Below, piece by piece: positions 10,737-40,809 of a stretch of DNA of 42,249 nucleotides (position 1 is its first letter; each line of letters starts with the position of its first letter). The notes below the pieces were generated by a model. That model searched no databases. It was not told where the DNA came from and worked only from the letters and a program-made list of their open reading frames with translations. The stretch is from contig DAIUFO010000001.1 in the NCBI GenBank assembly GCA_036844545.1, forward strand, positions 25,559 through 67,807, given 5' to 3'. The position numbers were made by a program, and so were the translations under genes. This DNA is from Chloroflexota bacterium. GTDB taxonomy: Bacteria; Chloroflexota; JAJPGV01.

Positions 10737-10766
<30 letters not shown>

Positions 10767-10853
10767 GGTGAGGGAGCCCAGCTCAGCCGTGAGCGCGCGC
10801 TGAGGGAGCGGGTGAGCGCCCTCACCTAGCCTCTCCCACCGCGGTAGGAGAGG
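10737..10853. repeat. composite palindromic element, two inverted copies: 10737-10775 (26-nt perfect palindrome plus CTAGGGTGAGGGA) and 10818-10853 (GCCCTCACCTAG plus 24-nt palindrome)
   Basis: Read directly. It sits between the convergent clpB and GT2 genes and contains both stop codons (TAG 10764-10766; TGA on the minus strand at 10822-10824). An inner hairpin CTCAGC..GCTGAG lies in the spacer. Confidence 0.85.
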
Positions 10854-11559
10854 AACAAGTGGGGGCTTGCGGATGGACGCGCAGGTCCTTCCATAGGAGC
10901 AGCAGCTCTTTGAAGGCTCGCAGGATCACCTTCAGCTTGGCGCCCGACGGCGAGCCTTTGGTGCGCGGCAGATGGGTCACGCCCACCTCCCGGAACACGA
11001 AGCCTGCGCGCCGCGCCCGGACCAACAGCTCGGCGCTGAAGGTCGCCCCGCGTGACTGGACCGGCAGCGACTCGATGACCTCCCGGCGCATCAACTTGAA
11101 GGCGCAATCCACGTCGCGCGCCGCGTAGCCAAACAGCAGGTTCACCAGCGAGGTCCAGCCCCAGCCGTTCAGCTTGCGCATCAGCGGGTCCTGCCGCACC
11201 TTGCGGTAGCCGGCGACGAAGTCGGCCGGCATCTCGGCCAGCAGCAGCCGCAGCTCGTCCAGCTTGAACTGCCCGTCGGAGTCGGTGAACATGCGTCGCT
11301 CGCCGGTGGAGGACGTAAGCCCGGTCCACACCGCCGCGCCGTAGCCCTGGTTGACCAGGTGGCGCACCAGGCGCACCCGCTCGTGCGTTTCGGCGAACTC
11401 GTGTACCAGGTCAGCCGTGTTGTCCTTGCTGCCGTCGTCCACCACGACGATCTCATAGTCGGGCTCGATACTCTCGAGCACGGCCACTGCCTCGTTGAGG
11501 ACGTCGACGATGTTCTCGGCCTCATTGTGGGCTGGCATAGCGAGCGAGAGCGCTGGCAT
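10822..11559 (-). CDS. family 2 glycosyltransferase (polyprenyl-phosphate sugar synthase-like)
   Basis: LSLAMPAHNEAENI.., VVVDDGSKDNT and FTDSDGQF (DxD). The 89-aa Arg/Pro-rich extension in the track ORF was rejected, and the start is placed at ATG 11559. The C-terminal SSPTAVGEAR comes from a repeat. Confidence 0.85.
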   Translation of the reverse strand: MPALSLAMPAHNEAENIVDVLNEAVAVLESIEPDYEIVVVDDGSKDNTADLVHEFAETHERVRLVRHLVNQGYGAAVWTGLTSSTGERRMFTDSDGQFKLDELRLLLAEMPADFVAGYRKVRQDPLMRKLNGWGWTSLVNLLFGYAARDVDCAFKLMRREVIESLPVQSRGATFSAELLVRARRAGFVFREVGVTHLPRTKGSPSGAKLKVILRAFKELLLLWKDLRVHPQAPTCSSPTAVGEAR

Positions 11560-11669
11560 GAGCGTAATCTGGACATTAGCACGCCACCGGGCAGGCGGCA
11601 GAGGGTGCTGACCCTCCAGTTCGCGGACACTGCCTGCTAGGATGCGGAGTGAGGTAAACGGCGAACAAC

Positions 11670-12668
11670 GTGGACCTGGCTCACATGGGCGAGTTCGGCG
11701 CGATTGAGCTGTTCCGGCAGGTTTTGGCGGCTCATACGGCCGAAGGCTCGCCGCGGCCGGAGATCGGCATCGGCGACGACGCCGCGGTGTGGCGCCCGAC
11801 CAAAGGCCGCTCGGCCATCGAAACAACTGACCTCCTCATCGAAGAAGTGCACTTCTCCTTGCGCTGGTGCAGCTGGTACGAGGTGGGCTGGAAGGCGATG
11901 GCCGTCAACGTCAGCGACGTGGCCGCCATGGGCGGCCAGCCCAGAGCGGCATTCGTTTCCGCCGGGCTGTCACCGGAAATGGGCACGGACCAGGTGCTCG
12001 AGCTCTATGGCGGCCTGGCTGACTGCGCGGCCGAGTACGGCCTCGCCATCCTGGGCGGCGACACCGTCGCCTCGCCTCGAGCGGCAGTGGTCAACGTCGC
12101 CCTCTACGGGGAGACCTTAGACGAGACCGGAGAGGTGCTGCGCCGCGATCGCGCCCGGCCCGGCGACGCGGTCGGCGTCAGCGGCCCGCTCGGCGCCTCG
12201 GGCGCCTATTTGCGGCGCCAGGAGGCGGCCTTTCGCGCCGCCCACCTCCACCCCCAGCCGCGGGTGACTCTTGGCCAACAGCTGCTGCGAGCCGGCGTCC
12301 ACTGCGCCATGGACGTCAGCGACGGCCTGCTCGCCGACCTGGCCAAGCTGTGCGCCGCCAGCTCCGCGGGCGCTCGCCTTGCCGCCGAGCGCATCCCCAT
12401 TGCTCCAGCCGTCCGGCAATTGCTGCCGGACGATGCCTTGGAGCTGGCCCTCACAGGCGGCGAGGACTACGAATTGCTGGTCTGCGGCCCAAAGGACGTG
12501 CTGGAGCAGCTGGGTTTAACGGTGATCGGCGAGATCGTCGAAGGCAGCGGCGTGCACGTGCTGGACAGCACCGGCGCCAAGCTCGACTACGCCAGCCGCG
12601 GCTACGATGCCTTTGCTCCCTCTCCCGCCGCGGCGGACGAGGGCTGGGGTGAGGGAACCAATGCGTAG
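11670..12668 (+). CDS. thiL: thiamine-monophosphate kinase
   Basis: GEFGAIELF.., IGIGDDAAV and the AIR-synthase-like fold motif (AMAVNVSDVAAMGG, DVSDGLLADL). GTG start. The C-terminal PSPAAADEGWGEGTNA comes from a repeat. Confidence 0.9.
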   Translation: MDLAHMGEFGAIELFRQVLAAHTAEGSPRPEIGIGDDAAVWRPTKGRSAIETTDLLIEEVHFSLRWCSWYEVGWKAMAVNVSDVAAMGGQPRAAFVSAGLSPEMGTDQVLELYGGLADCAAEYGLAILGGDTVASPRAAVVNVALYGETLDETGEVLRRDRARPGDAVGVSGPLGASGAYLRRQEAAFRAAHLHPQPRVTLGQQLLRAGVHCAMDVSDGLLADLAKLCAASSAGARLAAERIPIAPAVRQLLPDDALELALTGGEDYELLVCGPKDVLEQLGLTVIGEIVEGSGVHVLDSTGAKLDYASRGYDAFAPSPAAADEGWGEGTNA

Positions 12669-12717
12669 CACGGACAGCCACTCTCACCCTCACCCTCTCC
12701 CGGCAGCGGGAGAGGGG
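12618..12717. repeat. composite palindromic element, two inverted copies (12618-12656 and 12681-12717), spanning the thiL/tsaE junction
   Basis: Same family as 10737-10853. The thiL stop (TAG 12666-12668) and the only usable tsaE start (ATG 12661) both lie in the 24-nt spacer. Confidence 0.85.
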
Positions 12718-13176
12718 ACAGTAGTCTGCCACACCAGATCGCCCGAGGAAACCCGAGCTATCGGCCGGAAGATCGGCGCCGTTGCGCAGGCGGGCGACGT
12801 ACTCCTGCTGGTGGGCGAACTGGGGGCGGGCAAAACCGTCTTCAGCCAAGGTCTGGGCGACGGCTTGAGCGTCGAGGAGACCGTCAACAGTCCCACGTTT
12901 GTGCTGCTGCACGAGTACCACGGCCGGCTGACGCTGTACCACTACGACCTCTACCGCCTGGGCAACATCGAGGAGACAGTCTCGCATGAGTGGCAGGAGT
13001 TCCTGTACGGCACAGGCGTATCAGTGGTCGAGTGGGCCAACCGAGCGAGCGAGTTCCTGCCCACGGAGCACCTGTTGCTAGAATTCAGCATCGAATCCGA
13101 GACCAGGCGCGTCCTCCAATTGACCGCCGCCGGACGGCGCCACCTCGAGCTTCTGAGCGCTGTCCGATGCTCCTAG
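12661..13176 (+). CDS. tsaE: tRNA t6A37 biosynthesis ATPase TsaE
   Basis: P-loop GELGAGKTVFSQGL and SPTFVLLHEY. ATG 12661 overlaps the thiL stop (ATGCGTAG). The N-terminal roughly 19 aa come from a repeat. Confidence 0.85.
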   Translation: MRSTDSHSHPHPLPAAGEGTVVCHTRSPEETRAIGRKIGAVAQAGDVLLLVGELGAGKTVFSQGLGDGLSVEETVNSPTFVLLHEYHGRLTLYHYDLYRLGNIEETVSHEWQEFLYGTGVSVVEWANRASEFLPTEHLLLEFSIESETRRVLQLTAAGRRHLELLSAVRCS

Positions 13177-13796
13177 CTCTCGACACCGCTACCCACTACG
13201 CCAGCGTCGCCCTGCACGACGGGCAGCGCCTGTTGGGAGAGCACACCTGGCTGGCGTACCAGGACCACACCCGCACTCTTCTGCCTCATGTGCAGGCTCT
13301 GCTTGCCGGCGCGCAGGCCACCATCGACAGCCTGACTGGTATCGCGGTAGCCCTCGGCCCGGGTTCCTTTAATGGCCTGCGTGTCGGCTTGAGCACGGCC
13401 AAAGGCCTGGCCATCGCCCGCGGCCTGCCGCTGCTCGGCGCATCCACCCTGGAGCTGCTGGCCGCCGAATACGGCCTCGACGAGGTGACCATGAACGCCG
13501 GCCAAGGCCACATCTACCGCTGGAAACTCCCCTCTCCCGCCGCTTTCGCCGTCCGCGTAGGACCGGGAGAGGGCCAGGGTGAGGGAACCTGGAGCGGGGC
13601 GGGGTCAGCCTCCGAGATCGAGCTCGTGGACGGCGCCGCCCCCGACCGTGTACGGCATGCCGGCGTGCTGGCGGAGCTCGGCTGGCAGCGTCTGCGGGAA
13701 GGGCGCACACTGGACGTGGCCAAGATCGAGCCCATCTACGTCCGGCCGCCGCACATCACCGAGAGCCGCAAGAAAGCCCACATGCAGGCCGCCTAA
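13167..13796 (+). CDS. tsaB: tRNA t6A37 biosynthesis protein TsaB
   Basis: MLLALDTATHYASVAL.., GIAVALGPGSFNGLRVGLSTAKGLA and a C-terminal PIYVRPP. The start is placed at ATG 13167, overlapping the tsaE end by 10 nt. Confidence 0.85.
   Translation: MLLALDTATHYASVALHDGQRLLGEHTWLAYQDHTRTLLPHVQALLAGAQATIDSLTGIAVALGPGSFNGLRVGLSTAKGLAIARGLPLLGASTLELLAAEYGLDEVTMNAGQGHIYRWKLPSPAAFAVRVGPGEGQGEGTWSGAGSASEIELVDGAAPDRVRHAGVLAELGWQRLREGRTLDVAKIEPIYVRPPHITESRKKAHMQAA
13530..13586 (+). repeat. repeat copy inside tsaB: arms CCCTCTCCCG / CGGGAGAGGG with a 24-nt loop, plus CCAGGGTGAGGGA
   Basis: Read directly. Translated in frame as PSPAAFAVRVGPGEGQGEGT. Confidence 0.8.
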
Positions 13797-13797
13797 G

Positions 13798-14436: not shown

Positions 14437-14445
14437 GCAGCCTCT

Positions 14446-14518
14446 GTCATTTTGAGCGAAGCGAAGGACCCGCTCCGACGGCTGGCCCACGGATGCTTCG
14501 CTCGACGCTCGGCATGAC
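14446..14518. repeat. 73-nt imperfect palindromic intergenic element (GTCATTTTGAGCGAAGC...GCTTCGCTCGACGCTCGGCATGAC)
   Basis: The ends GTCAT/ATGAC and the inner arms GAGCGAAGC (14454-14462) / GCTTCGCTC (14495-14503) pair. This is the type of repeat that yields 'ILSEAKD / RFAQNDR'-like pseudo-peptides. Only one copy is in the window. Confidence 0.7.
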
Positions 14519-14529
14519 AAACTTGCGTC

Positions 14530-15564
14530 GTGCCAAACATCGTGGCCGTCGAGACGTCCTGCGACGAGACTTCGGCCGCGGTCGTCCGCGATGGCCGCTT
14601 TGTCGTCAGCAACGTCACCTCCACACAGGAGGCGATCCATCGCCGCTACGGCGGGATCGTGCCCGAGGTGGCCTCGCGCGAGCACCTGCTGACGATTGTG
14701 CCGGTGGTCAAGGAAGCCGTCGAGCAGGCTGGCGGTTGGTCCGCCATCGACGCCATCGCCAGCGTCCACGGCCCAGGTTTGGCTGGCTCGCTGCTGGTGG
14801 GCGTCAACATCTGCAAGGCGCTGGCGCTGGGGCGCGACTTGCCCTTGCTTGGCATCAACCACCTCGAGGGGCACATCTACGCCAACTGGGTGTACGACGA
14901 GGCAAACCCCGGCGAGCCGCCGGAGTTTCCGCTGCTGGCGCTCATCGTTTCCGGCGGGCACTCCGAGCTGGTGTTGATGCACGACCATGGCGACTACCAA
15001 CTGATCGGCCAAACGCGCGACGACGCCGCCGGCGAGGCGTTCGACAAGACCGCGCGCCTACTCGGCTTGGGCTACCCCGGCGGGCCGGCCATCCAGAAAG
15101 CGGCCGAGGGGTGCCATCACCCAGCCTCGCCCACCGCGGTGGGCGAGGAACAGATACGCCTGCCCCGGGCCTGGCTGCCGGGCACGCATGACTTCAGCTT
15201 CAGCGGCCTGAAGACGGCCGTGCTCCGGCTGGTCAGCTCGCCACACGAGGAAAGTGACGCATGGACCGCGGCGGTGGCGGCCGAGTTCCAACGCTCGGTG
15301 GTCGAGGTGCTGGTGGGCAAGACTGTGGCCGCGGCCGAGGAGCTGGGCGTCCGGTCGGTAGCCTTGGCCGGCGGCGTCGCCGCCAACAAGCCGCTGCGCG
15401 AGGCGCTGCAGCGGGTGGTCAGCTTGCCGTTCCACTGTCCCCGACTGTGGCTGTGTACCGACAACGCCGCTATGTCCGCCGCGGCCGGTTACTTCCACCT
15501 GATGCGCGGCGACGTCGCCGGGTTCGACCTGGACGTCGTGCCTGGGCTTCGGCTCGCCTCCTGA
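14530..15564 (+). CDS. tsaD: tRNA N6-adenosine threonylcarbamoyltransferase TsaD
   Basis: 344 aa. VAVETSCDETSAAV, INHLEGHI, SGGHSEL and FSFSGLKTAV. GTG start. Confidence 0.95.
   Translation: MPNIVAVETSCDETSAAVVRDGRFVVSNVTSTQEAIHRRYGGIVPEVASREHLLTIVPVVKEAVEQAGGWSAIDAIASVHGPGLAGSLLVGVNICKALALGRDLPLLGINHLEGHIYANWVYDEANPGEPPEFPLLALIVSGGHSELVLMHDHGDYQLIGQTRDDAAGEAFDKTARLLGLGYPGGPAIQKAAEGCHHPASPTAVGEEQIRLPRAWLPGTHDFSFSGLKTAVLRLVSSPHEESDAWTAAVAAEFQRSVVEVLVGKTVAAAEELGVRSVALAGGVAANKPLREALQRVVSLPFHCPRLWLCTDNAAMSAAAGYFHLMRGDVAGFDLDVVPGLRLAS
15114..15148. repeat. repeat copy inside tsaD: degenerate CCATCACCCAG flank plus a perfect 24-nt palindrome CCTCGCCCACCGCGGTGGGCGAGG (15125-15148)
   Basis: Read directly. 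Translated in frame as ASPTAVGEE. Confidence 0.85.
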
Positions 15565-17597: not shown

Positions 17598-17608
17598 AGT
17601 TCTTCTCC

Positions 17609-18913
17609 TCAATCCAGAATCGTTGGGCCGGTCACGGGGGTGGCCAGCGCGTTCAGCGCCTTGGCCACCAGAGCCTTGCGGAAGGCGCGCTCGTCATCCC
17701 GGCGCAGACTTGGGTCGCCGGTGACGTTGACGATGGCCTTGCCGCGGATGATGCGATTGGCGCCGACGGCCAGCGCCACGTTGTCCAGCGCGGTGATGTA
17801 GGCGACTGGTATCCCGCTGGACTCCAGCTCCTTGGCGAGCGCGGCGCCGCCGCGACTGCACGACCCTCAGGCCCCGGTCAGGATCACGCCTTCGACGCCC
17901 GCGCCGTGCAGCTCGCGCGACATCTCCCGCGCGAAGCGGCGCATGGTGGGAATCGCTGAGGTATTGCCGACGGTCGTGTACAGCTCGTCGTGAAGCTGGC
18001 GAAAAGCTCCCTGCTGCTCCAGCTCCCGCAAGCTGTCCAGGGGAGCCATGCGGTCGGGGTCCTCGTTCACGTTGGTCGTGTCGAAGCCACCGTGCACGGA
18101 CTGCCAGTCCGCCGGCTGAAAGCGCTCCAACCCGGCAATGGAATAGCGCAGCCACTTGCTGGCGTAAGCCGATTCCAACCGGTCGGGATTACCGCGGGGC
18201 ACGACGCCGCCGGTGGTAATCATCGCGATCTTGGCCTGGGCCACATCCGGAATGGGCGGCGCCGGCTCGATCAGGCTGTACGTTGGCACCGTCCATTCGG
18301 TGGCGTACGGCTGTCCCGCCACCTTCCGCAGCAGCATGTCCACCGCCCGCTCCGCAGCCGTCCGCTCCGAAACCTGGTGGACGCGCCGGCCGGTGGGGAT
18401 GTATCCCTCCTCTGCCGGTGGGCCAAGCTCCTCGCCCGCGTGCAGCCTCAACGCCAGAGACGCCATCCGCTCCAGCGCGTCGCGCATGCCCAGCGCCGTG
18501 TCCCGCGTGCTGGCCAGGTACACCTTGGTCCGGTACATGTCGGCGCCAGGGTTCCCCGGGTGCATGCCCGATACAGCCGTGATGCCCAACGTCTCCTGGG
18601 CGTGGGCGCACACGGCGCCGCAGGCTAAGCCGTAACGGCCAGCTGCGAATGCCGGCCCCGCAATCAAGATGTCGGGAGCCTCGCTGGCGACCAACGGCAT
18701 GACCTCGTCCATGGCGCCGGAGGATTCGTTGGCGTAGTTGTCGCCGCAGTAAACGGTCGAGACCACTTGGGCGCGGTCGCCGAGTGCCTGCTGTAGCGCC
18801 AAGCCCGGGCCGGCTGGGCCGGACTTCCGGCCGGGCGGCAGCCCCGCCCGCGTCTCGCCGCCGATGCCCGCGAAGAACTGGTTGAGGTAATGGACCACTC
18901 GAAGGGCGCTCAT
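17609..18913 (-). CDS. grdB: GrdB-like selenoprotein (glycine/sarcosine/betaine reductase protein B selenoprotein-subunit family), 434 aa with Sec at residue 349 encoded by UGA 17867-17869
   Basis: The N-terminus is LRVVHYLNQFFAGIGGE. The ORF stops at TGA, but the same frame continues for 85 codons: U-GSCSRGGAALAKELESSGIPVAYITALDNVALAVGANRIIRG.., ending at TGA 17609-17611. The length and the Sec context match GrdB. Confidence 0.85.
17867..17869 (-). other. in-frame UGA, predicted selenocysteine codon
   Basis: The plus strand reads tca at 17867-17869. Family-conserved sequence lies on both sides of it in one frame. Confidence 0.8.
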
Positions 18914-20210: not shown

Positions 20211-21131
20211 TTACACCTGCAACCTGGGGTCGAGCGCATCTCGCAGCCCGTCGCCGAACAAATTCGTGGCTAACACGGTGATGACCAGCGCAATGCCCGG
20301 GAACAGGCCCAGCCACCAGGCCGTGGACAGGTACTCGCGACCTTGGCTGAGCATGGCGCCCCAGCTGGGCGTGGGTGGCTGCACACCCAACCCGAGGAAG
20401 CTGAGCGAGGACTCGGCGATGATCAGCTCGGCGAACTGGAAGCTGCTGATGACGAAGATCGGCGCCATTACGTTCGGCGCCAGGTGGTGGACGATGATGC
20501 GAGCGTTCCGCGCGCCCAGCGAGCGCGCCGCCTCGACGAACTCGCGCGCTTTGAGGCTGAGCACCGCGCCGCGCACCGTCCTGGCGTAGACCACCCAGCT
20601 GCGCAGCGCCAGCACGATCACCAGGTTCAGCAGGCTCGGCTTGAGCAGCGCCATGACGGCGATGGCCAGCAGCAAGTACGGAAACGACAGCTGGATGTCC
20701 ACGATACGCATCAGCGCTGCGTCCAAGCCGCCGCCATAGTAGCCGGAGATCAGTCCCACCGCCACGCCCACTACCAGCGCGACCAGGACACTGACGCCGG
20801 CAATGGCCAGCGAGGTCCTAGCCGCCCAAATGACTCGCGTGAGCGTGTCGCGCCCCAGCGAGTCGGTACCGATGGGGTGGACTGTGCTCCCACCCACGAT
20901 CCAGGCTGGCGGCTTCAAGCCGTCGCCAAGATGCTGCGCATCAGGCCCGGCCGGCGCAAGGATGGGGGCGGCTAAGGCGACCAGCACCACCAGCGCCAGC
21001 AAGGCGAACCCCACGGCTCCGCTGCTGGTCCGCGCCAGCCGCCGCAGCGTCTCAAAGCGCCGCGGCTCCGCTTCCTTAGAGTCCCCTCGCCCGCTTCGGC
21101 GGGCGAGGGTTAGGGTGAGGGCACTCATCAT
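20211..21131 (-). CDS. ABC transporter permease (DppC/OppC type)
   Basis: 306 aa, with the binding-protein-dependent transport signature region (..SLSFLGLGVQPPTPSWG..). ATGA start/stop overlap with the upstream permease. N-terminal residues 3-17 come from a repeat. Confidence 0.9.
   Translation of the reverse strand: MMSALTLTLARRSGRGDSKEAEPRRFETLRRLARTSSGAVGFALLALVVLVALAAPILAPAGPDAQHLGDGLKPPAWIVGGSTVHPIGTDSLGRDTLTRVIWAARTSLAIAGVSVLVALVVGVAVGLISGYYGGGLDAALMRIVDIQLSFPYLLLAIAVMALLKPSLLNLVIVLALRSWVVYARTVRGAVLSLKAREFVEAARSLGARNARIIVHHLAPNVMAPIFVISSFQFAELIIAESSLSFLGLGVQPPTPSWGAMLSQGREYLSTAWWLGLFPGIALVITVLATNLFGDGLRDALDPRLQV
21084..21121. repeat. repeat copy: CCCTCGCCCGC-TTCG-GCGGGCGAGGG plus TTAGGGTGAGGG
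   Basis: Read directly. It lies inside the 5' end of the permease CDS and is translated on the minus strand as SALTLTLARRSGRGD. Confidence 0.85.
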
Positions 21132-23135: not shown

Positions 23136-25529
23136 TTACGGCGCTGAAGCTGCATCCGAAACCGCAAGCGTGAAGTGATCGGCCGGCGCGGACCGGCCGG
23201 GCAGCTTGACCTGGATCCGGCCGACATCGGGTTGGGTGTACATGCCAATCTGCAAGCGTAGGCTTGAGTCGGGCTGTACGCCAATGGGGTACACGTCGTG
23301 GACCACGTCGCCTGCATGCCATAGAGCCGTCGGATAGCTGCCGCCACGCGGCAGCCCGTCCCACTGCCGGACGAGCTTGCCAGCCCCGTCCACGGCATGG
23401 ACGAAAACGGTGTAACTCGCCTGAGGCTTGCGCACAGCCTCCCAATCCACCGTGACGTCCTGCCCTTGCCAGCCGGCGCGCAGCAGGCCGATTTCTCCAT
23501 TGCCGAGCGTGGCCAGCGGCGCCTCCGAGGAGGCACCTTGACTAGCGCCGGCCACCCTGAGGGGGCCGATGCGAATGGCCGTACCGGCCGGCGTGGCGTC
23601 CCCGACCATCGGCAGCCGCTGCTGGCTGAACGTGTCGTAGAAACCCAGCTCGAGCCAGTAGCCAGCAGTGGGCGCCTCTGGTTTGACGTTCAAGTCAAAG
23701 CCGCTGGCCACGAAGTCGCCGGCGCGCCACGGCTCGCCGACGTCCCATAAGTCCGGCGCCGTGGAGACCATCGTGCCCTGCTGGTCGACAAGGTGCAGGA
23801 ACTGGCTGAGATGGTTGGGTAGACGGGCGGGATCGAGGATACGCCACAACAGCGACACTCGGGAAGGCTGCCCCGCGGCGAGCGGCTCGGCCAGGTAGCC
23901 CTGCACCTGGATGGCGTTGTCGACATTGAGGTTCAGCGGCACGTACGACGATCCGCTGAACACCTGAGCCTCGGCATGCTCAGGCAGCTGAAACAGGCCC
24001 AGTTCTGGCTCGCCCGCGTCATTCCGAACTGTGGTGGCTGCCGGCCCGAAGTGCTGCGACAGGAATCGATAGCCGAACGTATCGTTCTGCGCGAGGTATG
24101 AGGCGCGCGCATTCGGGAATACGAACACCGACTGGTCCAGGTACCAGCGGTAATCCGGCCGGCCAGCCAGAGCCGGAACCGTCTTGTTGTAGAGGAAGGG
24201 CACGGCGAGATAGAGCTCCTGATTGGCCGCGTCCGAGCGCACAGCATCCGCGGCCGCCAGCGAGTAACGCAGCGGCAGGCCGTAGGCCACCTGGCGAATG
24301 TTCGTGCCAGCGGCTCTCTGAAACGACAGGTAGCCGGCGACGAGGGGGGTCAGCAAGGCGGCCAGCAACGCCGCCGCGCCCACGGTCAAGCCGAGCCGTT
24401 CCACCTTGGGGAAACACCGCACGGCCAACTTGCCGGCGAAGGTCCATAGGTCATGGAGCGCCACGGCTTGTAGGACGGCGATGGCAGGCAGAATTGCCAG
24501 CAGATAGTGCGCGGCGACCCCGTCAGCCGGGCTGAGCACGTCGGAGCTGTGGCGGACGGCGGCGAGGATGGGAATCGCGAACCAGGCGGCTACCACGGTC
24601 CGGCCGGAAGCTCGCCGCCGCCACGTCAAGGCCAGTCCCAATATCAACAGACCGATAAGCAGCCAGCTCAACGGATCGTATGCAAACGAGTTGGGCACAT
24701 CGGGCCCGGGGATCAGCGAGCGGTACATGGCTGGGCCGGCCAGGTGGGCGGCCGTGTCAAGCACGGCCAGGTCGGCAACCTTGTGCAAGCCTAGATAGCC
24801 CGCCAGCTTTGTGACGTCGCTCCAGCCGGTTTGCATTTGGAGATACAGATATGGAGCCAGCGGAACCAGCGACAGCAGCCCGGCGGCGGCAGCCGGCCTC
24901 AGGCCCACCTTCTTGCGGCCAACAATGGCCACAATCACCCACAGCGGCGCCAGGACCGCATTCACGACGTGCAACTGCACGTCCCAACTGAGCGCAAACA
25001 GACTGACCGCCAGGGATAGGGACCGGCCGCGCACGGCAAAGTCAACCAGACCGAGCAACGTCAGGGCCGCGAAGAACGTCCCGAGGTCGGGATTCCAGAT
25101 CATTCGCCCCGAGGTGATGGCCGTTGCGTTGACGGCGTACAGCGCGCCGGCGGCCACGCCCGCGAAGGTGCTGCCGCTGATTCGCTTGGCGATCAGGTAC
25201 ACGATCGGCGCCGCCAGAGCATCCAGCACTGCCACCCAACCGGAGACCCAAACCGGGTTGCGATTCATCGACATCGGCAGGGCCAGCAGATAGGTGACCA
25301 GCGGCGGATGCCTCGCGCCCGTCACCGCGAAGGTGAAGCCACTCGTCAGCGGCAACTGGCCGGTGTCAAGCCACTGGGCCGCGGATTGCAGCAGCTCGAC
25401 CTGATCGTTGAAGAAGCGGGTAAGGTCGATCTGCCACAGCCGCGGCAGGAGCGCCAGAACGAGCACGCCAGTCGGAGCCAGCACACGCCTTATCGTGGGC
25501 CACGCGACCCCACCACCGGGGTCCCTCAC
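23136..25529 (-). CDS. GT-C fold membrane glycosyltransferase (GT39/ArnT/PMT-like) with a large C-terminal extracytoplasmic domain
   Basis: More than 10 TM segments and an N-terminal ArnT/PMT-like loop (LTRFFNDQVELLQSA..GQLPLTSG). The start is uncertain: GTG 25529 (inside the repeat, preceded by GGGAGAGGG) or the track's TTG 25586. Confidence 0.75.
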   Translation of the reverse strand: MRDPGGGVAWPTIRRVLAPTGVLVLALLPRLWQIDLTRFFNDQVELLQSAAQWLDTGQLPLTSGFTFAVTGARHPPLVTYLLALPMSMNRNPVWVSGWVAVLDALAAPIVYLIAKRISGSTFAGVAAGALYAVNATAITSGRMIWNPDLGTFFAALTLLGLVDFAVRGRSLSLAVSLFALSWDVQLHVVNAVLAPLWVIVAIVGRKKVGLRPAAAAGLLSLVPLAPYLYLQMQTGWSDVTKLAGYLGLHKVADLAVLDTAAHLAGPAMYRSLIPGPDVPNSFAYDPLSWLLIGLLILGLALTWRRRASGRTVVAAWFAIPILAAVRHSSDVLSPADGVAAHYLLAILPAIAVLQAVALHDLWTFAGKLAVRCFPKVERLGLTVGAAALLAALLTPLVAGYLSFQRAAGTNIRQVAYGLPLRYSLAAADAVRSDAANQELYLAVPFLYNKTVPALAGRPDYRWYLDQSVFVFPNARASYLAQNDTFGYRFLSQHFGPAATTVRNDAGEPELGLFQLPEHAEAQVFSGSSYVPLNLNVDNAIQVQGYLAEPLAAGQPSRVSLLWRILDPARLPNHLSQFLHLVDQQGTMVSTAPDLWDVGEPWRAGDFVASGFDLNVKPEAPTAGYWLELGFYDTFSQQRLPMVGDATPAGTAIRIGPLRVAGASQGASSEAPLATLGNGEIGLLRAGWQGQDVTVDWEAVRKPQASYTVFVHAVDGAGKLVRQWDGLPRGGSYPTALWHAGDVVHDVYPIGVQPDSSLRLQIGMYTQPDVGRIQVKLPGRSAPADHFTLAVSDAASAP

Positions 25530-25561
25530 CCTAGCCCTCTCCCGCTGCGGCGGGCGAGGGG
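25523..25561. repeat. repeat copy: CCCTCACCCTAG plus CCCTCTCCCGC-TGCG-GCGGGCGAGGG
   Basis: Read directly. It lies between the amidohydrolase stop (25576) and the body of the GT39-like gene. Confidence 0.85.
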
Positions 25562-25575
25562 ATGATTTTGGAAGG

Positions 25576-28734: not shown

Positions 28735-30060
28735 ATGAACGCATCTCGTCGCAACTTCCTCAAAGGCATCGCGGCCGCCGCCGGGCTGGGTATCGCTGCC
28801 CCGTTGGCGTACCTGAAAACGAAGGAGATCAGGTCGGGAACGGCATTCCTGCCGTCGCCGAGCCCGGAGTCCCGAGCCCCGAGTCCGGCATCGTCTTCCG
28901 CTCCTGCCTTGGCATCGGCCTCGCCGAGCGCGCCAGCCAAGACGCAGCCGCGGTCGCTGGTGGTCATCCAGCTGGCCGGCGGCAACGACGGTCTGGCTAC
29001 GGTGCTGCCCTATGCCGACGGCGCGCTGCACGACAACCGCGGCACGCTCGCCTTCCCGGACGATCAGCTGCTGAAGCTGGACGGTAAAGTGGCGCTGCAT
29101 CCCAACCTGAAGGGCCTGAAGACGCTGTGGGACGACAAGAAGCTTGCGGTCGTCCAGGGCGTGGGCTATCCCAACCCCAATCGCTCGCACTTCGCCTCCA
29201 TGGACATCTGGGCCAGCGCCACGCCTGGCAAACCATCACAGAGCGGCTGGCTCGGCCGCTACCTCGATGCCGCCCAACTCCCCGCCGACAATCCCTTCAA
29301 CGCTGCCAGCGTCGGCGGCGCGCTGCCGTTCGCCCTCAAGTCGCAGAAGACGGTGGTGGCCAGCGTGCAGGATGCCAGCACCTTCCAGCTCCGCACCGAT
29401 CCGCGCCATCCCCAGGACCACGACGAGCTGATGGCTGCCTTCAAGCGCATCTACAGCCGCGGCCTCGGCGGCGCGACCTATTCCGAGCTGGTCGGCAAGG
29501 CGGAGTCGACGGCCGTCAGCGCCGCCGCCGAGCTGAAGGACCTGGCTACCAAATACCATTCCGCGGTCTCGTACCCGCAAACGCCATTGGGCCGCGGCCT
29601 CCAGAACGTCGCCCAGCTGATGAGTGGCGGCTTCGGCACGCGCGTCTACTACGTCCAGACCGGCGGCTTCGACACCCATGCCAACGAGAAGACCGGCCAC
29701 GACCGGCTCATGTCGCAGCTATCGGACGCTATCGCCGCCTTCTACCAGGACATCAAGGCGCAGGGCCTCTCCCAGAACGTGGCCATGATGACCTGGTCGG
29801 AGTTCGGCCGGCGCGTCAAAGAAAACGGCTCCGGCGGCACCGATCACGGCACCGCCGCGCCCCTGTTCGTCATCGGCGACGCCGTCAAAGGCGGCTTGGT
29901 GGGCGATCACCCATCTCTCACCAAGCTCGACACCAATGGCGACCTTGTGTTCGGCATCGACTTCCGCTCCGTCTACAACACCATCCTCACCAAATGGCTC
30001 GGCCTCGACGGCCAAGAAGTCCTCGGCCAGAAATTCGACGTGCTGCCGCTGTTTGGTTAG
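28735..30060 (+). CDS. DUF1501 family protein (sulfatase-like fold) with a Tat signal
   Basis: SRRNFLKGIAAAAGLG twin-arginine signal, then GGNDGL.., GGFDTH and GTDHG motifs. This is the usual partner of DUF1800. Confidence 0.85.
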   Translation: MNASRRNFLKGIAAAAGLGIAAPLAYLKTKEIRSGTAFLPSPSPESRAPSPASSSAPALASASPSAPAKTQPRSLVVIQLAGGNDGLATVLPYADGALHDNRGTLAFPDDQLLKLDGKVALHPNLKGLKTLWDDKKLAVVQGVGYPNPNRSHFASMDIWASATPGKPSQSGWLGRYLDAAQLPADNPFNAASVGGALPFALKSQKTVVASVQDASTFQLRTDPRHPQDHDELMAAFKRIYSRGLGGATYSELVGKAESTAVSAAAELKDLATKYHSAVSYPQTPLGRGLQNVAQLMSGGFGTRVYYVQTGGFDTHANEKTGHDRLMSQLSDAIAAFYQDIKAQGLSQNVAMMTWSEFGRRVKENGSGGTDHGTAAPLFVIGDAVKGGLVGDHPSLTKLDTNGDLVFGIDFRSVYNTILTKWLGLDGQEVLGQKFDVLPLFG

Positions 30061-30602
30061 AGGAACAGATCGGACACTGGCATCGAGATGCCAGGCAGCA
30101 GTGGACACGTGAGTTCGTCCTCGGTTGTCAGCAAGCGCTCGGGACGGTACACGCCCTCAACCAACTCGTAGGGCTGGACCGTCTGCGCCTTGGCGTCGAC
30201 GATGTAATAGAACGGGACCCCAAATCGCGCGTACAGCTGCATCTTGACGCCGAGATCCCGGCGCCGCGTGCTCGGCGAGAGAACCTCGACCAGGATATCG
30301 GGGGCGCCTTGGATGTTGACCTCGGTGATGATGTTCGCCCGCTCATTGGTGATGAAGACCACGTCCGGCACGACGACATTGAACCGATCAAAGGCGACAT
30401 CAATGGGCGCTGAGAAACCGATGCCGAGGCCCGCCCGCTCGGCGTGCATAAAGTAGCCGGAGAAGTTCCAGGACGCACGCTGGTGCGGCGGGAACGGCGA
30501 CGCGCTCACGAGGAGTTCGCCGTCGATGATCTCGTAGCGCTTCCCATCATCGGGCGTTTCGAGTAGGTCCTCATAGGTGAGCTTGGGTGAAATCACTGCC
30601 AT
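30057..30602 (-). CDS. Uma2 family (DUF820) PD-(D/E)xK endonuclease-like protein
   Basis: YEIIDGELLVSASP.., APDILVEVLSPSTRRRDLGVKMQLYARFGVPFYYIVD. The start is probably ATG 30602 (MAVISPKL..). Confidence 0.8.
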   Translation of the reverse strand: MAVISPKLTYEDLLETPDDGKRYEIIDGELLVSASPFPPHQRASWNFSGYFMHAERAGLGIGFSAPIDVAFDRFNVVVPDVVFITNERANIITEVNIQGAPDILVEVLSPSTRRRDLGVKMQLYARFGVPFYYIVDAKAQTVQPYELVEGVYRPERLLTTEDELTCPLLPGISMPVSDLFL

Positions 30603-30745
30603 GGGCGACTCGCCTGTAAGTATCACACGCCTAACCGGTCCCTATACTGTCCCTAATGAGTTCCCCCCAGGCCGGGCTGGCCGAGGGCGTTCCTGTCGAG
30701 TTCCAACCCATCGCCGAGACCCGCGCGGAGCTGCTGCGGGAAGAG

Positions 30746-32680: not shown

Positions 32681-33349
32681 ATGTCCAGCGTCCATGTCAT
32701 TCCGCTCGACTTATTGGGTCATCCGCATGGGGATGGACTGTATGAGGTCCACGAATGGCGGAACGCCGCCGCCATCCTGCAGGAGGTGTATCCCGAAGCA
32801 TGGCGAGACGTGCTCGAGGTACTCCGGGCGTTCCGGCTCTCACGGAACGACATCCTCACCCCTGGCGGTGGCAAATCGCCGATTGCTTCAAAGCTGGACA
32901 GCGCCTTCTATGCACGCGGTTGGCAAGAAAAGCGCTTCGAGACTCACATTACGGTGGACCAGACCAGCTACGACTCACCGACCCATCAAGTGGACTGCCT
33001 GAAGGCGAAGGTCGCGCTCGAAGTCGAATGGTCGAATAAGGACACCTTCTTCGACCGGGACCTCAACAACTTCCGGCTGCTCTTCGATTTGCGGGCGATT
33101 GACGTTGGCGTCATCGTCACCCGCAGCGATGATCTACAAGCCCTCTTCAATGAGGTCGGCAAGGGCAAAAGCTACGGACAATCCACGACGCACATGAGCA
33201 AGTTGCTACCTCGCCTCGAAGGCGGCGGCGGTGGCGGCTGTCCCGTCCTGGTCTTCGGTATCAACCGCAAGCTCTACGTCGATGACGGCCTCACGGCGGA
33301 GCCTGCGGTCACATCCGCGGGACCAAAGGATGAAAATCCCCAGCCGTAG
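32681..33349 (+). CDS. type II restriction endonuclease, BglII/BamHI-like fold
   Basis: 222 aa. VDCLKAKVALEVEWSNKDTFFDRDLNNFRLLF aligns with the BglII core IDFGKRDTLVEVQFSNYPFLLNN (D-x8-E-x-[QE]). It lies next to a DNA methyltransferase. Confidence 0.7.
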   Translation: MSSVHVIPLDLLGHPHGDGLYEVHEWRNAAAILQEVYPEAWRDVLEVLRAFRLSRNDILTPGGGKSPIASKLDSAFYARGWQEKRFETHITVDQTSYDSPTHQVDCLKAKVALEVEWSNKDTFFDRDLNNFRLLFDLRAIDVGVIVTRSDDLQALFNEVGKGKSYGQSTTHMSKLLPRLEGGGGGGCPVLVFGINRKLYVDDGLTAEPAVTSAGPKDENPQP

Positions 33350-33367
33350 TAGGATCCCGGCCAACTC

Positions 33368-34072
33368 ATGACCGAAGCACTGGCCTACGCCGACTCCCAA
33401 CCCAACCTCGAAGAATCCCTGCTGGACTTCGCCGCCGGGCGTCGATGGTCCACTCTCTACGCCGATCCCCCGTGGCAATTCGCCAACAAGACCGGGAAGG
33501 TGGGTCCCGAACACCGCCGGCTATTCCGGTACGAGACCATGACGAACGAAGGGATCATGGCCCTACCAGTGGCGGAAGTCGTCACGGCTCCATCCCACCT
33601 CTATTTGTGGGTGCCGACCGCGCTCATTCCCACAGGAATCGCAACGATGGAAAGTTGGGGCTTTCGCTATATCTCGGCCCTTTACTGGCACAAGCTTCGC
33701 AAAGACGGCTGCTCGGACGGTCGCGGAGTAGGCTTTTACTTCCGCAACGTCGTTGAACCCTGCCTGTTTGGAGTCCGCGGCAACATGCGTACGCTGGCCC
33801 CTGGTCGCAGCCAAGTGAATTATTTGGGAACGAGAAAGCGCGAGCACAGCCGCAAACCCGACGAGTTCTACTCCATCTTCATCGAGCGCTGCTCACCTGG
33901 ACCGTACTTGGAGCTGTTCGCTCGTGGCCCGGCACGAGCAGGCTGGGACGCCTGGGGCAACCAAGCAGGATTACCGCTGGCAAACGGCCACCCCATGTAT
34001 CGAGGTGAGCCCGCACAACCACGCCTGCTTGCCGAGAGGCGTGCCCCTATCCCGGCGACGGCGACCGAATGA
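33368..34072 (+). CDS. MT-A70 family DNA N6-adenine methyltransferase
   Basis: Catalytic motif YADPPWQF, then HLYLWVP and EHSRKPDEFY, all typical of MT-A70. Confidence 0.85.
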   Translation: MTEALAYADSQPNLEESLLDFAAGRRWSTLYADPPWQFANKTGKVGPEHRRLFRYETMTNEGIMALPVAEVVTAPSHLYLWVPTALIPTGIATMESWGFRYISALYWHKLRKDGCSDGRGVGFYFRNVVEPCLFGVRGNMRTLAPGRSQVNYLGTRKREHSRKPDEFYSIFIERCSPGPYLELFARGPARAGWDAWGNQAGLPLANGHPMYRGEPAQPRLLAERRAPIPATATE

Positions 34073-34911: not shown

Positions 34912-35776
34912 TGGCTGGCTTCTGGACCGGCGGCGGCGCAATCGTCACCGGCCGGTTGATGTTAACAAGGTCCATGTGGCTCACGATCGGGGACACCCCT
35001 GCTCCGTTGTTCACGCGCATGGTAAAGGCCGCTTTCACGATGGCGCCGCTGGCCGCGTCCAGCCAGACGTCGCCAGTCGTCGGATCATACGTGGTGGACG
35101 AGATCGCGCCGAAGCTCACTGCCCGGCCGGCTTTCCAGGTGAGCACGAAGTGGTTGGCCCGCACGCCGTTGGCCGTTTCCGTGCCCTTGAACACCGCCGC
35201 GTCGGGATGGTCAAACCAATCGCGGGCGAATGCCTCAGCCACCTCGAGCACACCTGCCTGGGGAGGCGGCGTCGAGCCGCTGTCGACGATCGGGGAGCCG
35301 CCCACGCTGGAGAAGTAGCGGCCGTTCACGAAGTACAGCTCCAGTGGCGGGCTCAGCGGCACCGCCAGGCTGGCGTGGTAATTGGGTGTGGCCTCATCCA
35401 CCATCACGTTGTAGTCAAAGCCGTCGGCGTTGACGTCGAACTGGAGCCGGTAGTAGCGGATGGAAGACAGCCGCTCGTAGGCATTGGGTGGATAGGTCGG
35501 GGTGGGCGTCCGGGTGGGCGTTGGCAGCGGCGTGTTGGTCGGCGCCGGCGTGGGCGTGTCCGGAGGAGGCGTCGGCGTGGGCGGCACGGTATTCGTGGGC
35601 ACCGGCGTATCGGTCGGCTGAGGCGTTTGGGTCGGCACATCCGTTGGCGCCGGCGGCGGTCCGGCCGACTGCGTGGGCGCCTGAACCTGGGGTGGCGCGG
35701 CCTGGGCGCCGCAAGCCGAAAGCAACGCTGTCGCCAGCAGACAGCTTCCGAAAGAGAATCCTGACGTTCGTATCAT
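34904..35776 (-). CDS. hypothetical lipoprotein with a long Pro/Thr-rich linker
   Basis: Lipobox LLSAC, about 70 aa of PT-rich linker, then a roughly 190-aa globular domain. It overlaps the HAD start by 8 nt (ATGGCTGA). Confidence 0.7.
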   Translation of the reverse strand: MIRTSGFSFGSCLLATALLSACGAQAAPPQVQAPTQSAGPPPAPTDVPTQTPQPTDTPVPTNTVPPTPTPPPDTPTPAPTNTPLPTPTRTPTPTYPPNAYERLSSIRYYRLQFDVNADGFDYNVMVDEATPNYHASLAVPLSPPLELYFVNGRYFSSVGGSPIVDSGSTPPPQAGVLEVAEAFARDWFDHPDAAVFKGTETANGVRANHFVLTWKAGRAVSFGAISSTTYDPTTGDVWLDAASGAIVKAAFTMRVNNGAGVSPIVSHMDLVNINRPVTIAPPPVQKPANG

Positions 35777-38288: not shown

Positions 38289-38332
38289 GGCTCGTTGCGT
38301 CCCTCTCCCGCGCTAATCATAGCCAGCTTTTG

Positions 38333-38746: not shown

Positions 38747-39945
38747 CGATGGCGAGGGGAGGTCTCCGGCATGATCAGCGTGAGCCACAGCTGGCCGGCG
38801 GCAATCGCCAGCATGACCAGCAAGCCATACAGATGGGAGCCCGTGGCATCCCGGAGAAAGCCGACCAGCGGCGGACCAACCACGACGCCGCCAAAGCCCA
38901 CCGTCAGCATCAGCCCGGTAAAGGCGCCCACTTCGTCGGCTCGAGCCACATCGACAGGAATCACGAAGCCGGTGGTAAACAGCACGGAAGTGGCGCTCCC
39001 GATCAGCAGCGGCCACAGCCAATAGACCCGCGGCCACAGGATCAGCCCCACAACGCCGAGGACGCTGCCCACGCCGGCGAGGATTAACGGCGGCCGGCGG
39101 CCGGCCCGGTCTGAGAGGGCGGGCCCGGCGAAGCCGAACACGATGGCCGCGGCGCTCAGCAACGCCACCGTCGAGGCCGCGGTGGCGAGCGAAAACCCGA
39201 GGCTCTGGTAGTAGCTGGTGAGCCACGAGTTGAGGATGTAGAACAGCAGGCTCTGGGTCAGAAAGATGCCGCTCGCCAGCCAGCAGATACGGCTGCGGAA
39301 GATGCGGGCAAACGGCGCCAGGCTCTCCCCGCCGCGCGATTGCCCGCTGGGCACGAACAGCCAGGCCAGCGCCGTCAGCCCTACGATGCCCGCCCAGATG
39401 ATGAACGGGCCACGCCAGGTGAGCGCGCCCGAGAACGGCACCAGCACCGGCACCGCCAGCGCGGCGGCGGTCGTCGCGCCCACCGCGAAGCCATTGGAGT
39501 AGATGCCCGTCATCACTCCGGTGTTGTGCGTGAAACGGTCCTTTATCAGCCGCGGCAGCGCCGGCTGCACCAGACCGATGCCAGCTCCGAGCAGCCCTGT
39601 GAACACGAACAGCGCCGCGCCGTTGCCAGCCAGCGCTCGCAGGCCGCCGCCCAGAGCAAGCAGCGTCAGGCTCATGAGCAGCACCGGCTTCACCCCCAGT
39701 CGCGCGATGATGAGCCCGCTCGGTATTGAGAACAGGCCCATCATCAGCGCCGGGATCGAGAAGAGGAAGCCCGCCTGCGCATAGCTCAGCCCGAGATCTG
39801 TTTGGATGAGCGGCAGCACCGGCCCAACCGAAATGGTGTTGGAACGCGACGAGAAGGCGGTCAGCCAGGCCAGCGCCAGGACGGCATAAGGGAAGCCCGC
39901 GGCCGCGGCCGGCGCTGCAGGCCGAGCCGCGGCGTTGGCGGACAC
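38743..39945 (-). CDS. MFS transporter
   Basis: About 12 TM segments. The start is uncertain. GTG 39945 is preferred because ATG 40062 and ATG 40041 would overlap the divergent gene. Confidence 0.8.
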   Translation of the reverse strand: MSANAAARPAAPAAAAGFPYAVLALAWLTAFSSRSNTISVGPVLPLIQTDLGLSYAQAGFLFSIPALMMGLFSIPSGLIIARLGVKPVLLMSLTLLALGGGLRALAGNGAALFVFTGLLGAGIGLVQPALPRLIKDRFTHNTGVMTGIYSNGFAVGATTAAALAVPVLVPFSGALTWRGPFIIWAGIVGLTALAWLFVPSGQSRGGESLAPFARIFRSRICWLASGIFLTQSLLFYILNSWLTSYYQSLGFSLATAASTVALLSAAAIVFGFAGPALSDRAGRRPPLILAGVGSVLGVVGLILWPRVYWLWPLLIGSATSVLFTTGFVIPVDVARADEVGAFTGLMLTVGFGGVVVGPPLVGFLRDATGSHLYGLLVMLAIAAGQLWLTLIMPETSPRHR

Positions 39946-40039
39946 CGCACCAACTATACGCAAGTTTTCTGGTTTCGGGTTGGGTTCACGACATCCCTGC
40001 TCAGCGCGCGCGGCACTACACTTTGCCCGTGCGCGGCGC

Positions 40040-40738
40040 ATGTATCTGAAGATCACCGCCACCGGCCCTCAAGCCGAGCAAATCGGCCAACTCATGGGCC
40101 GCTTTCCCGAGAGGCTCACCATCCGCGAGCCGCCCAACGCCCGCTTGCGGCTCATCGTCGAGGCTTCCATTCCCGGCAGCATCTCCTTCACCATGCTGGC
40201 CTACCCCGAGCCGGCGACCGGCTGGGACATCTCGCCCGACCAGCTCCACATCGGCGACTACGTCAGGTCGCGCGTGGTCGCGCTGTCACCCCTATTTCGA
40301 TCCTTCCTCGATGGCGCCTTCGGCTCCGCCCTGCTGCCGATAGCTCGGCACGAGCTGGTGCAGCGTAAGTTCGAGCTGCAGGCTGAGATCGCACCTCTGG
40401 CTGTCAATTTTCGGAACCCCCACCTGCGCAGCCTGTTCGAGCCGCTGGGCTACCGGGTTGAGCTGGAGTCGCCCGTGCTGGGCCTGCCCGCCATCCTGCT
40501 GCGCCTGCTCGGCCGGCAGTCGCTCACGGACGTCATCCGCCACCTGTTCGTGCTGATCCCCGCCCTGGACGAAGGTAAGCAAACGCCGCTCAGCGCTGAG
40601 GAGGCCAAGCGGCTGAGCACCCTCAGCCTGCCCTGGCTGATCACCCACCCCAAACGCTCCTTCATCGCCCGCGGCTACCACCTCAAGCTGGCGCAGCTCG
40701 TTGGTTCCTCTCCCACCGCGGTGGGAAAAGCTCGGTGA
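40040..40738 (+). CDS. Hen1 N-terminal (Hen1_L-like, Pnkp-ligase-activating) domain protein without the methyltransferase domain; possibly a truncated remnant
   Basis: MYLKITATGPQAEQIGQLMGRFPERL.., LFEPLGYRVELES and HLFVLIPALDEGKQ.. resemble the N-terminal half of bacterial Hen1. The ORF ends in the repeat-derived tail SSPTAVGKAR. Confidence 0.45.
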   Translation: MYLKITATGPQAEQIGQLMGRFPERLTIREPPNARLRLIVEASIPGSISFTMLAYPEPATGWDISPDQLHIGDYVRSRVVALSPLFRSFLDGAFGSALLPIARHELVQRKFELQAEIAPLAVNFRNPHLRSLFEPLGYRVELESPVLGLPAILLRLLGRQSLTDVIRHLFVLIPALDEGKQTPLSAEEAKRLSTLSLPWLITHPKRSFIARGYHLKLAQLVGSSPTAVGKAR

Positions 40739-40809
40739 CGGCGACCGTGCCCTGGGGCCGCCTACCGGCGGCGACACCCTCACCTAGCCTCTCCCGCAAG
40801 CGGGAGAGG
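40707..40809. repeat. composite palindromic element, two inverted copies (a degenerate one at 40707-40730 and 40777-40809)
   Basis: Read directly. The upstream gene's stop (TGA 40736-40738) and in-frame GTG candidates for the downstream gene (40735, 40747) lie in the spacer. Confidence 0.8.

Follow-up and report, generated by a model that had tools for sequence, protein, structure and literature searches.

How can a stretch of genome in which neighboring genes abut or overlap take up a dense set of palindromic repeats, and what becomes of the genes in which those repeats lie? This question is raised by a 42,249-nt stretch of Chloroflexota DNA (hereafter the window), for which a first-pass annotation had described a dispersed, GC-rich palindromic repeat that is mostly translated. 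Its sequence identifies this repeat, present in ten copies, as a member of the BoxC / PIT / TMECO family, also called the HPGQ G-quadruplex-hairpin switch. In our assessment, held at a probability of about 0.8, copies of this family multiplied recently in this lineage, the genes run through them, and the peptides encoded in this way are tolerated by-products.

The repeat unit spans ~38-45 nt and is composed of a C-rich block, its G-rich complement (both together forming a hairpin of 10-12 bp), a CTA(G), and a second G-block, GGGTGAGGG. In forward orientation the consensus reads R-Y-Y, CCCTCTCCCGC, a loop of 2-4 nt, GCGGGAGAGGG, CTA, and GGGTGAGGG. Two subtypes can be distinguished by block length, namely the A-type with 9-nt blocks and the B-type (n = 4) with 8-nt blocks, the latter being laid out as GTTCCTCTCCC..GGGAGAGG CTA GGTGAGGG with the lead GTTCCTCTCCC common to all four copies. 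A covariance model trained on nine copies was run over the whole window and matched exactly ten copies (40.7-68.9 bits, E-values from 1.5e-8 to 5e-16), including the long-loop copy 13526-13588; all remaining matches were opposite-strand echoes of the palindromic cores only. These are the ten copies that had been listed initially, and no others. Pairing of the stem cells amounted to 90.8%, compared with 44-66% when the 3' partner was slid by one to three columns, and compensatory changes were found at two stem positions. The description as a dispersed palindromic repeat family holds. Over-representation relative to shuffled sequence was confirmed for the window: the tail motif YWRGGTGAGGG (with at most one mismatch) occurs 14 times, a count that no shuffle out of 100 attained, versus 4.5 times expected. 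A scan of the window at Rfam gathering thresholds returned no matching family. Chance or artefact as an origin of the repeats was ruled out by the covariance-model E-values together with four concordant assemblies.

Six of the copies fold better than shuffled sequences as single-stranded DNA (z -2.3 to -5.4), and the other four (10818, 12618, 13530, and 40707) are degraded in their folding (z 0 to -1). Tail and G-arm together make up the canonical motif G3N3G3N3G3N3G3 of a G-quadruplex (G4). Four G3 tracts plus the C-rich 5' flank are retained in four copies (10754-10774, 13565-13585, 21101-21121, and 25523-25543), with a broken or shortened G-tract in the remaining six. Within the window, four out of five canonical G4 motifs lie inside the elements.

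Six copies are arranged in three inverted pairs (10733 with 10816, 12614 with 12678, and 40702 with 40774), spanning 117, 100, and 103 nt, in which the G-rich tails face inward, i.e., tail-to-tail. One of these three pairs combines an A-type with a B-type copy, and a further pair is located upstream of the window. The first-pass annotation had regarded the pairs as inverted composites with an architecture like that of MITEs (miniature transposable elements with inverted repeats). While the pairs themselves are real, the MITE reading was rejected, since their spacers of 42, 24, and 46 nt are mutually unrelated (best local alignment score 5-7), there is no conserved core, and no target-site duplication was seen. 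Extension of the search to the 10 kb upstream of the window in the same genome (L253) added three more copies, ~6-9 kb upstream of the window start, so that ~52 kb of DNA from the source genome were examined in total. The density within the window amounts to ~1 copy per 4 kb (Table 1).

Table 1. Copies of the repeat in the window (positions counted from its first letter) and in the upstream flank L253 of the same genome; score, bits in the covariance model.
Feature	Position	Strand	Score	Context
A-type copy	10733..10777	+	68.9	last nine ClpB codons and TAG stop 10764-10766
B-type copy	10816..10858	-	59.9	GT2 tail SSPTAVGEAR and TGA stop 10822-10824
A-type copy, TAG changed to TGG	12614..12658	+	59.5	ThiL C-terminal extension
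A-type short-loop copy	12678..12720	-	50.6	TsaE N-terminal extension
A-type copy, expanded loop, TAG changed to CAG	13526..13588	+	40.7	internal in TsaB
B-type copy	15111..15153	-	59	in-frame, internal in TsaD
A-type copy	21080..21124	+	63.3	first 17 codons of DppC-like permease
A-type copy	25520..25564	-	59.9	between amidohydrolase stop (25576) and PMT_2-like glycosyltransferase gene
Degenerate B-type copy	40702..40744	+	52.9	Hen1_L-like ORF tail SSPTAVGKAR and TGA stop
B-type copy	40774..40814	-	50.1	directly upstream of TMEM260-like gene (TTG 40813)
Intergenic inverted pair	L253:1033-1169			between convergent NicO and acyl-CoA dehydrogenase genes
Single copy	L253:3721-3762			C-terminal tail of Fer4/CCG protein, identical to ClpB tail, then stop

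The assignment to a known family is based on the G-rich part of the unit. This 21-mer, GGGAGAGGGCTAGGGTGAGGG, has exact matches at 119 or more loci in representative genomes from many phyla, and in ~118 of 125 copies at these loci a C-rich block, being CCCTCTCCC or closely similar to it, and a loop precede it, many of the loops being 3-6 nt long. Among the matches listed, hosts include Pseudomonas, Serratia, Klebsiella, and other enterobacteria, Rhizobiales, Burkholderiales, Cyanobacteria, Dehalococcoidia, and Anaerolineales as well as Planctomycetota, Verrucomicrobiota, Acidobacteriota, Myxococcota, Nitrospirota, and Bacteroidota. In the work of Holder et al. 2015 (PMC4666352), the TMECO "triplex motif" is defined as CCCTCNCCC N3-6 GGGNGAGGG N3 GGGNGAGGG, and 23 copies are reported in E. 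coli K-12 that are "always intergenic", with five inverted pairs of type A and type B. Their survey comprised 3610 copies in 262 proteobacterial genomes, with large differences between close relatives and no link to mobile elements; earlier BoxC/PIT studies from Hoyne/Maher and from Bachellier are also cited there. A literature search by the names of the family yielded nothing further than this paper. Kaplan et al. 2016 (PMC5100583) described the same element as a G4-hairpin-duplex switch, the E. coli copies of which were never found within an open reading frame (ORF). The three-block layout of BoxC is realized exactly in three copies of the window and with at most one mismatch per block in five if a loop of up to 8 nt is accepted; the four B-type copies hold the same layout with 8-nt blocks.

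Eight of the ten copies are inside reading frames in which no earlier stop or later start is on offer, and two (25523 and 40777) overlap a gene only under particular start codons. In this respect the initial description was accurate, with ORF continuity, start inventories, and ortholog alignments in agreement; the peptides quoted in it are correct translations of the window DNA, and the palindrome indeed yields the same peptide core in either orientation. Pfam confirmed the hosts and neighbors as ClpB, a GT2 enzyme, ThiL, TsaE, TsaB, RimI, TsaD, a DppC-like permease, a PMT_2-like transferase, and a Hen1_L-like ORF. The same copies recur in four assemblies from one population (L120-L123, at 99.2-99.9% identity), and this independent agreement shows that the gene ends, which stand as originally assigned, are no artefact. 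Read forward, the element leaves one frame open, while the other two run into TAG and TGA, respectively; read in reverse, only one of the three frames is stopped, at TAG, and two stay open. As a consequence of this layout, the element itself provides the stop codon of some genes (ClpB, GT2, and the Hen1_L-like ORF, the last of these with the TGA of the degenerate copy), and the copies that are read through carry TGG (ThiL) or CAG (TsaB) in place of the TAG.

C-terminal tails of this kind are found on ClpB, GT2, ThiL, and the Hen1_L-like protein. None of the four has a stop codon ahead of the element, and three of them terminate on its TAG or TGA; in the ClpB gene (8109-10766), the element's TAG is the first stop. 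The frame of ThiL passes the TGG and stops 11 codons on at 12666-12668 within the pair spacer, thereby gaining 16 residues (PSPAAADEGWGEGTNA). The Hen1_L-like ORF (39935-40738) covers positions 1-234 out of 242 of the Pfam Hen1_L profile; it contains a complete Hen1_L domain without a methyltransferase domain or a Pnkp neighbor and may be a truncated Hen1 remnant. At the opposite gene end, the TsaE extension (MRSTDSHSHPHPLPAAGEGT) starts with ATG 12661 in the pair spacer, no in-frame ATG, GTG, or TTG is available between the copy and the TsaE domain, and the Pfam match begins at residue 44 of the long ORF. The N-terminus of the DppC-like permease (20211-21131, minus strand), MMSALTLTLARRSGRGDS, reads the copy as well; its ATG 21131 overlaps the stop of the upstream DppB-like gene as ATGA, and the next in-frame start, GTG 21014, is already located inside OppC_N. 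Two insertions are internal and in-frame with conserved sequence on both sides, namely LPSPAAFAVRVGPGEGQGEGT in TsaB and HHPASPTAVGEEQ at about residues 196-208 of TsaD.

The two start-dependent copies precede genes. The tail of copy 25523 holds GTG 25529, the start of the PMT_2-like gene in the public gene call, with GGGAGAGGG as a possible ribosome-binding site 5 nt upstream. Copy 40777 is upstream of TTG 40813 and falls within the TMEM260-like ORF if translation starts at GTG 40735 or 40747; this gene, recognized by Pfam, GC-frame analysis, and translation, extends past the window end. The candidate starts ATG 12661, GTG 25529, and TTG 40813 are all positioned 3-6 nt downstream of G-blocks (GGGTGAGGG or GGGAGAGG) resembling Shine-Dalgarno sequences. 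Ribosome-binding sites, and at 25529 also the start codon, may be contributed by the element.

Comparison with relatives showed that both the copies and the additional residues are lacking there. In three syntenic loci (L125, L127, and L128, with TsaD identities to the window of 84%, 75%, and 76%), neither the regular expression nor the covariance model detects a copy. ClpB of the relatives ends with ...ELAATGA or ...ELAPA, to which the window adds the element-coded tail, and ThiL ends with GYDAFR or GYDAFAK, the additional residues of the window being visible as an insertion in the DNA alignment. TsaE has 13-15 extra N-terminal residues in the window, and TsaB, reading MPGAPG..D in relatives, carries 23-26 inserted residues (in comparison to L125, L127, and L130). 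In the case of GT2, the last ~12 residues are replaced, the relatives having an unrelated C-terminal tail of similar length. The 3' ends of ClpB and GT2 overlap by 4-14 nt in the relatives; between ThiL and TsaE there is an overlap of 17 nt (L125, L127) or a gap of 8 nt (L128). With the ends of the host genes overlapping in relatives, no intergenic room was available, and the inserted pairs now hold the termini of both genes.

The TsaD site allows a finer resolution. Relatives of 84-88% overall identity show a gap of 8-9 residues at the copy. Considering relatives at 84-90% protein identity, and with the sites compared as DNA, the copy is intact in the window and in L131 (there as a short-loop copy), decayed with the frame kept and the hairpin lost in L130, partly deleted in L132, and the site is empty in L129 and L125. 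The TsaB insertion in turn is missing in L130, the TsaD of which is 90% identical. These varying states at the TsaD site, in combination with the absence of the TsaB insertion from L130, indicate that the copies differ in age. Taken over all hosts, the element is in-frame in TsaD, TsaB, ClpB, ThiL, TsaE, and GT2 and absent from orthologues in L125, L127, L128, L129, and L130. A TsaD search of the contigs of representative genomes retrieved one relative only, at 49% identity. Judged from these sequence comparisons, the family has been gained recently and at high density in one Chloroflexota lineage.

The status of the encoded peptides (PSPAAAGEG and kin) points to tolerated by-products and not to the element's reason to exist, because the frames vary between hosts, the frame of ClpB switches, and disorder is predicted for the TsaD insert, which decays in relatives. 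Several registers are in use, e.g., PSP..GEG, LTLTLARRSGRG, and HPHPLPAAGEG. The ClpB tail recurs identically on a Fer4/CCG protein that is unrelated to ClpB and lies 6 kb upstream of the window, and an indel of 1 nt in a C-run at 10736 results in a ClpB of 885 aa in the window versus 897 aa, in the other frame, in L120 and L121. The window has one C more than these two assemblies within the run 10733-10736, which may reflect either true microdiversity or an assembly error in the homopolymer. For TsaD, the AlphaFold model (mean predicted local distance difference test, pLDDT, of 85) contains residues 198-206 as the only internal stretch below 50; this stretch is modeled as coil, corresponds to the element, and aligns to a gap in the Thermotoga TsaD structure (PDB 6n9a).

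Beyond this lineage, the family was examined for its position relative to genes. Copies within reading frames are not confined to this genome, but their share is high here. Across the 125 copies of the representative genomes, the longest ORF spanning the hairpin had a median length of 140 aa, compared with 418 aa at random positions of the same loci, and most of these copies thus lie between genes or at their ends. Hosts assigned by Pfam include PrmC of a Comamonadaceae metagenome-assembled genome (MAG) with a copy pair between its two domains, a DEAD helicase of Lysobacteraceae and a PSCyt2/PSD1 protein of Schlesneria with copies inside, and RNase R of Nitrospirota, with the TAG of the element as its stop. 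Scanning metagenomes for the form with the extended stem yielded 120 loci with ~187 copies, and a GC-frame classifier placed 40% of 145 assessable copies in coding-like ORFs versus 68% of random positions, a comparison that is semi-quantitative. E2 acyltransferases on GC-rich metagenome contigs contain two to five tandem 45-nt units as the linker between the lipoyl and E3-binding domains (Pfam). One unit encodes PSPQPSPAxAGEGxx, with 3.9 units at L197:1408-1582 (Tandem Repeats Finder) and further arrays in L188, L172, L234, L238, L157, L144, and L210. Additional translated copies in metagenomes, likewise by Pfam, were found in MetRS just ahead of the tRNA-binding domain, in ValRS between the catalytic and the anticodon-binding domains, in a HutI-like amidohydrolase, and in HemF. 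The ORF-embedded copies use the uncharged SP..GEG register 33 times versus eight and four times for the two Arg-rich registers, a count overstating the bias as units in tandem arrays are not independent. The bias would agree with selection acting on the survival of insertions. When a linker peptide of three units was used as a protein query, a single marginal match resulted, probably owing to low-complexity correction.

On this basis, a scenario can be proposed in which the copies would spread as non-autonomous mobile DNA, in a manner like that of repetitive extragenic palindromic (REP) sequences and REPINs, through some enzyme. Selection in a genome of abutting genes would then leave only those copies sparing both neighboring ORFs. 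As neighboring genes abut or overlap, the surviving copies are those at gene junctions and in permissive loops; some genes start upstream and read into the element (TsaE and the DppC-like permease), TsaD holds it in a loop, and its small flexible residues would be tolerated at termini and in surface loops.

A number of observations weigh against this interpretation. Neither a transposase nor a REP-associated tyrosine transposase (RAYT), the search for which the first-pass annotation had proposed, was found by Pfam among the genes of the window, and no target-site duplication was seen between filled and empty sites, at a divergence too high to exclude short ones; given both results, we infer mobility from presence/absence patterns only. 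Translation of the copies would, in the same way, follow from the continuity of the ORFs alone. The strict published TMECO regular expression allows 3-6 nt for the first loop and fails on all ten copies, since GC..GC lengthens the stem and leaves 8 nt between the 9-nt blocks, and the B-type copies have blocks of 8 nt. The GC-frame classifier is crude, calling 32% of random positions non-coding and missing the TsaB copy. Finally, given the E2 arrays and the frame bias, selection at the protein level may act in some hosts.

It is unlikely that the copies represent selected cis-acting elements at gene ends, i.e., terminator or mRNA-stabilizing hairpins, G4/triplex switches, or portable ribosome-binding sites, with the ORF overlap resulting from tight gene spacing. 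Such functions would be in line with 5 out of 13 copies (window and upstream flank) being located at the 3' ends of genes, the hairpin lying nearer to the gene than the tail, with the stable hairpins of six copies, with the Shine-Dalgarno-like G-blocks ahead of the three candidate starts, and with the concentration of canonical G4 motifs in the elements. However, both orientations relative to transcription occur, the copies in the TsaB and TsaD loops are far from gene ends, and close relatives manage without any copy. Moreover, the TsaD copy in L130 has lost its hairpin and kept its frame, no T-tract follows the hairpin, and earlier studies of the E. coli PIT elements, cited in PMC4666352, saw neither promoter nor terminator activity.

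We consider it very improbable that the element is kept for its peptide, as a linker or tag module rich in Pro, Ser, Ala, and Gly that spreads between proteins. The tandem in-frame arrays serving as E2 linker, the copies ahead of the tRNA-binding domain of MetRS, and the strong bias toward the uncharged register would fit such a module, though the frame-bias statistic is weakened by the tandem units not being independent counts. On the other hand, the conserved object is a DNA palindrome that also occurs between genes, including the pair in L253. All three registers and both orientations are used, the frame of the ClpB tail changes within one population, and the insert in TsaD, as mentioned, is predicted to be disordered. 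That the gene overlap is an artefact of mis-assigned gene ends or mis-assembled contigs, with all repeats being intergenic, is next to negligible in probability: copies 25523 and 40777 do depend on the choice of the start codon and N-terminal extensions are often annotation errors, a caution also expressed in PMC3733652, but the four C-terminal tails have no stop before the element, TsaE and the DppC-like permease have no start between the element and the conserved domain, TsaB and TsaD are conserved on both sides of the copy, and the four assemblies concur.

The recent multiplication of BoxC-type copies within and between genes would have consequences on several levels. Neither a function nor a way of spreading has become known for the family since the 1990s, and the contrast between a burst in one lineage and none in its relatives makes this question more tractable: if the interpretation holds true, lineages with recent bursts, set against element-free sisters, could reveal the mobilizing enzyme. 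G4/triplex-capable sequence inside the essential genes tsaD, tsaB, and clpB provides a testbed for claims of genome instability caused by such motifs. In MAGs of this type, the annotation of gene ends, starts, and low-complexity tails hinges on the copies, as exemplified by the two lengths of ClpB. The route from selfish DNA to protein, pictured so far for Rickettsia palindromic elements (RPEs) and intragenic REPs, would be extended to a family of many phyla, including the E2 linkers. Tentatively, and with considerable doubt, one could go further and regard BoxC/TMECO elements as widespread raw material for protein evolution and gene-boundary remodeling in free-living bacteria, providing stops, possible starts and ribosome-binding sites, and, in some hosts, co-opted Pro/Ser/Ala/Gly linkers as in the E2 arrays.

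Independent of the repeat family, the window contains further features. An in-frame TGA (17867-17869) interrupts a GrdB-like glycine reductase gene (17609-18913, minus strand); a single 434-aa product is recorded across it in one public annotation, which makes this TGA a probable selenocysteine codon. At 32681-34072, a gene for a BglII-like restriction endonuclease adjoins an MT-A70 methyltransferase gene, forming a probable type II restriction-modification pair, and nothing is found at this place between RNase III and the HAD hydrolase in L125 and L127. A gene for a Uma2-family putative endonuclease (30057-30626) is inserted between DUF1501 and ketoacyl synthase, with no gene there in L127 and L128. 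The 5' end of a xanthine-dehydrogenase-like gene carries G-rich imperfect direct repeats (35517-35655, four copies of ~34 nt) and a separate canonical G4 motif (35499-35518), both unrelated to the element.

In comparison to known systems, the closest likeness is to BoxC/PIT/TMECO itself. Both share the layout CCCTCNCCC, loop, GGGNGAGGG, N3, GGGNGAGGG, the inverted pairs of two subtypes, a G-part found in identical form in more than 100 other genomes, a copy number that swings between close relatives, and the lack of any known associated mobile-element gene. Differences concern the stem of 11-12 bp with a first loop beyond the published 3-6 nt, the B subtype with its 8-nt blocks, and the host, being a member of the Chloroflexota in contrast to the proteobacteria of the published survey. 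The window furthermore holds ~1 copy per 4 kb, compared with 23 in the whole genome of E. coli K-12, and 8 out of 10 copies inside ORFs, as opposed to "always intergenic" ones. HPGQ (PMC5100583) is resembled in the G3N3G3N3G3N3G3 motif following a complementary C-rich block, in the position flanking ORFs, and in the opposite-strand pairs; in the window, however, only 4 out of 10 copies keep four G3 tracts, and in E. coli no HPGQ lies within an ORF.

REPs are likewise short GC-rich hairpins forming head-to-head or tail-to-tail dimers, often at the 3' ends of genes, and the tail-to-tail pairs of the window resemble these dimers as well as the BoxC pairs of E. coli. According to Di Nocera et al. 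2013 (PMC3733652), GTAG/CGTC REPs often provide the flanking ORF with its TAG stop, and some are wholly in-frame within genes, probably as linkers or loops. In contrast to REPs, the copies of the window lack GTAG/CGTC at the foot of the hairpin and have a CTAG between the hairpin and the third G-block, for which REPs have no counterpart, and no RAYT is known for the BoxC family. A flank profile of 306 copies revealed R-Y-Y 5' of the C-block and CTA, CTG, or TTG 3' of the hairpin, with no GTAG or CGTC tag and no target-site duplication. RPEs reside in-frame in many unrelated housekeeping genes without destroying them (PMC10969869), and in-frame palindromic repeats in housekeeping genes are what the window shares with them. 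RPEs, however, are ~100-150 bp long, restricted to Rickettsia, and unrelated in sequence, whereas the BoxC-type unit described here measures ~40 nt, occurs in many phyla, and is often situated at gene termini, where it contributes stop codons. The family is therefore known, and its behavior has precedents in intragenic REPs and RPEs. As far as the searched literature shows, new aspects are the embedding of BoxC copies in ORFs, at odds with how the family has been described, the variants with an extended stem or with 8-nt blocks, the very high density in this Chloroflexota lineage, and the E2 linker arrays.

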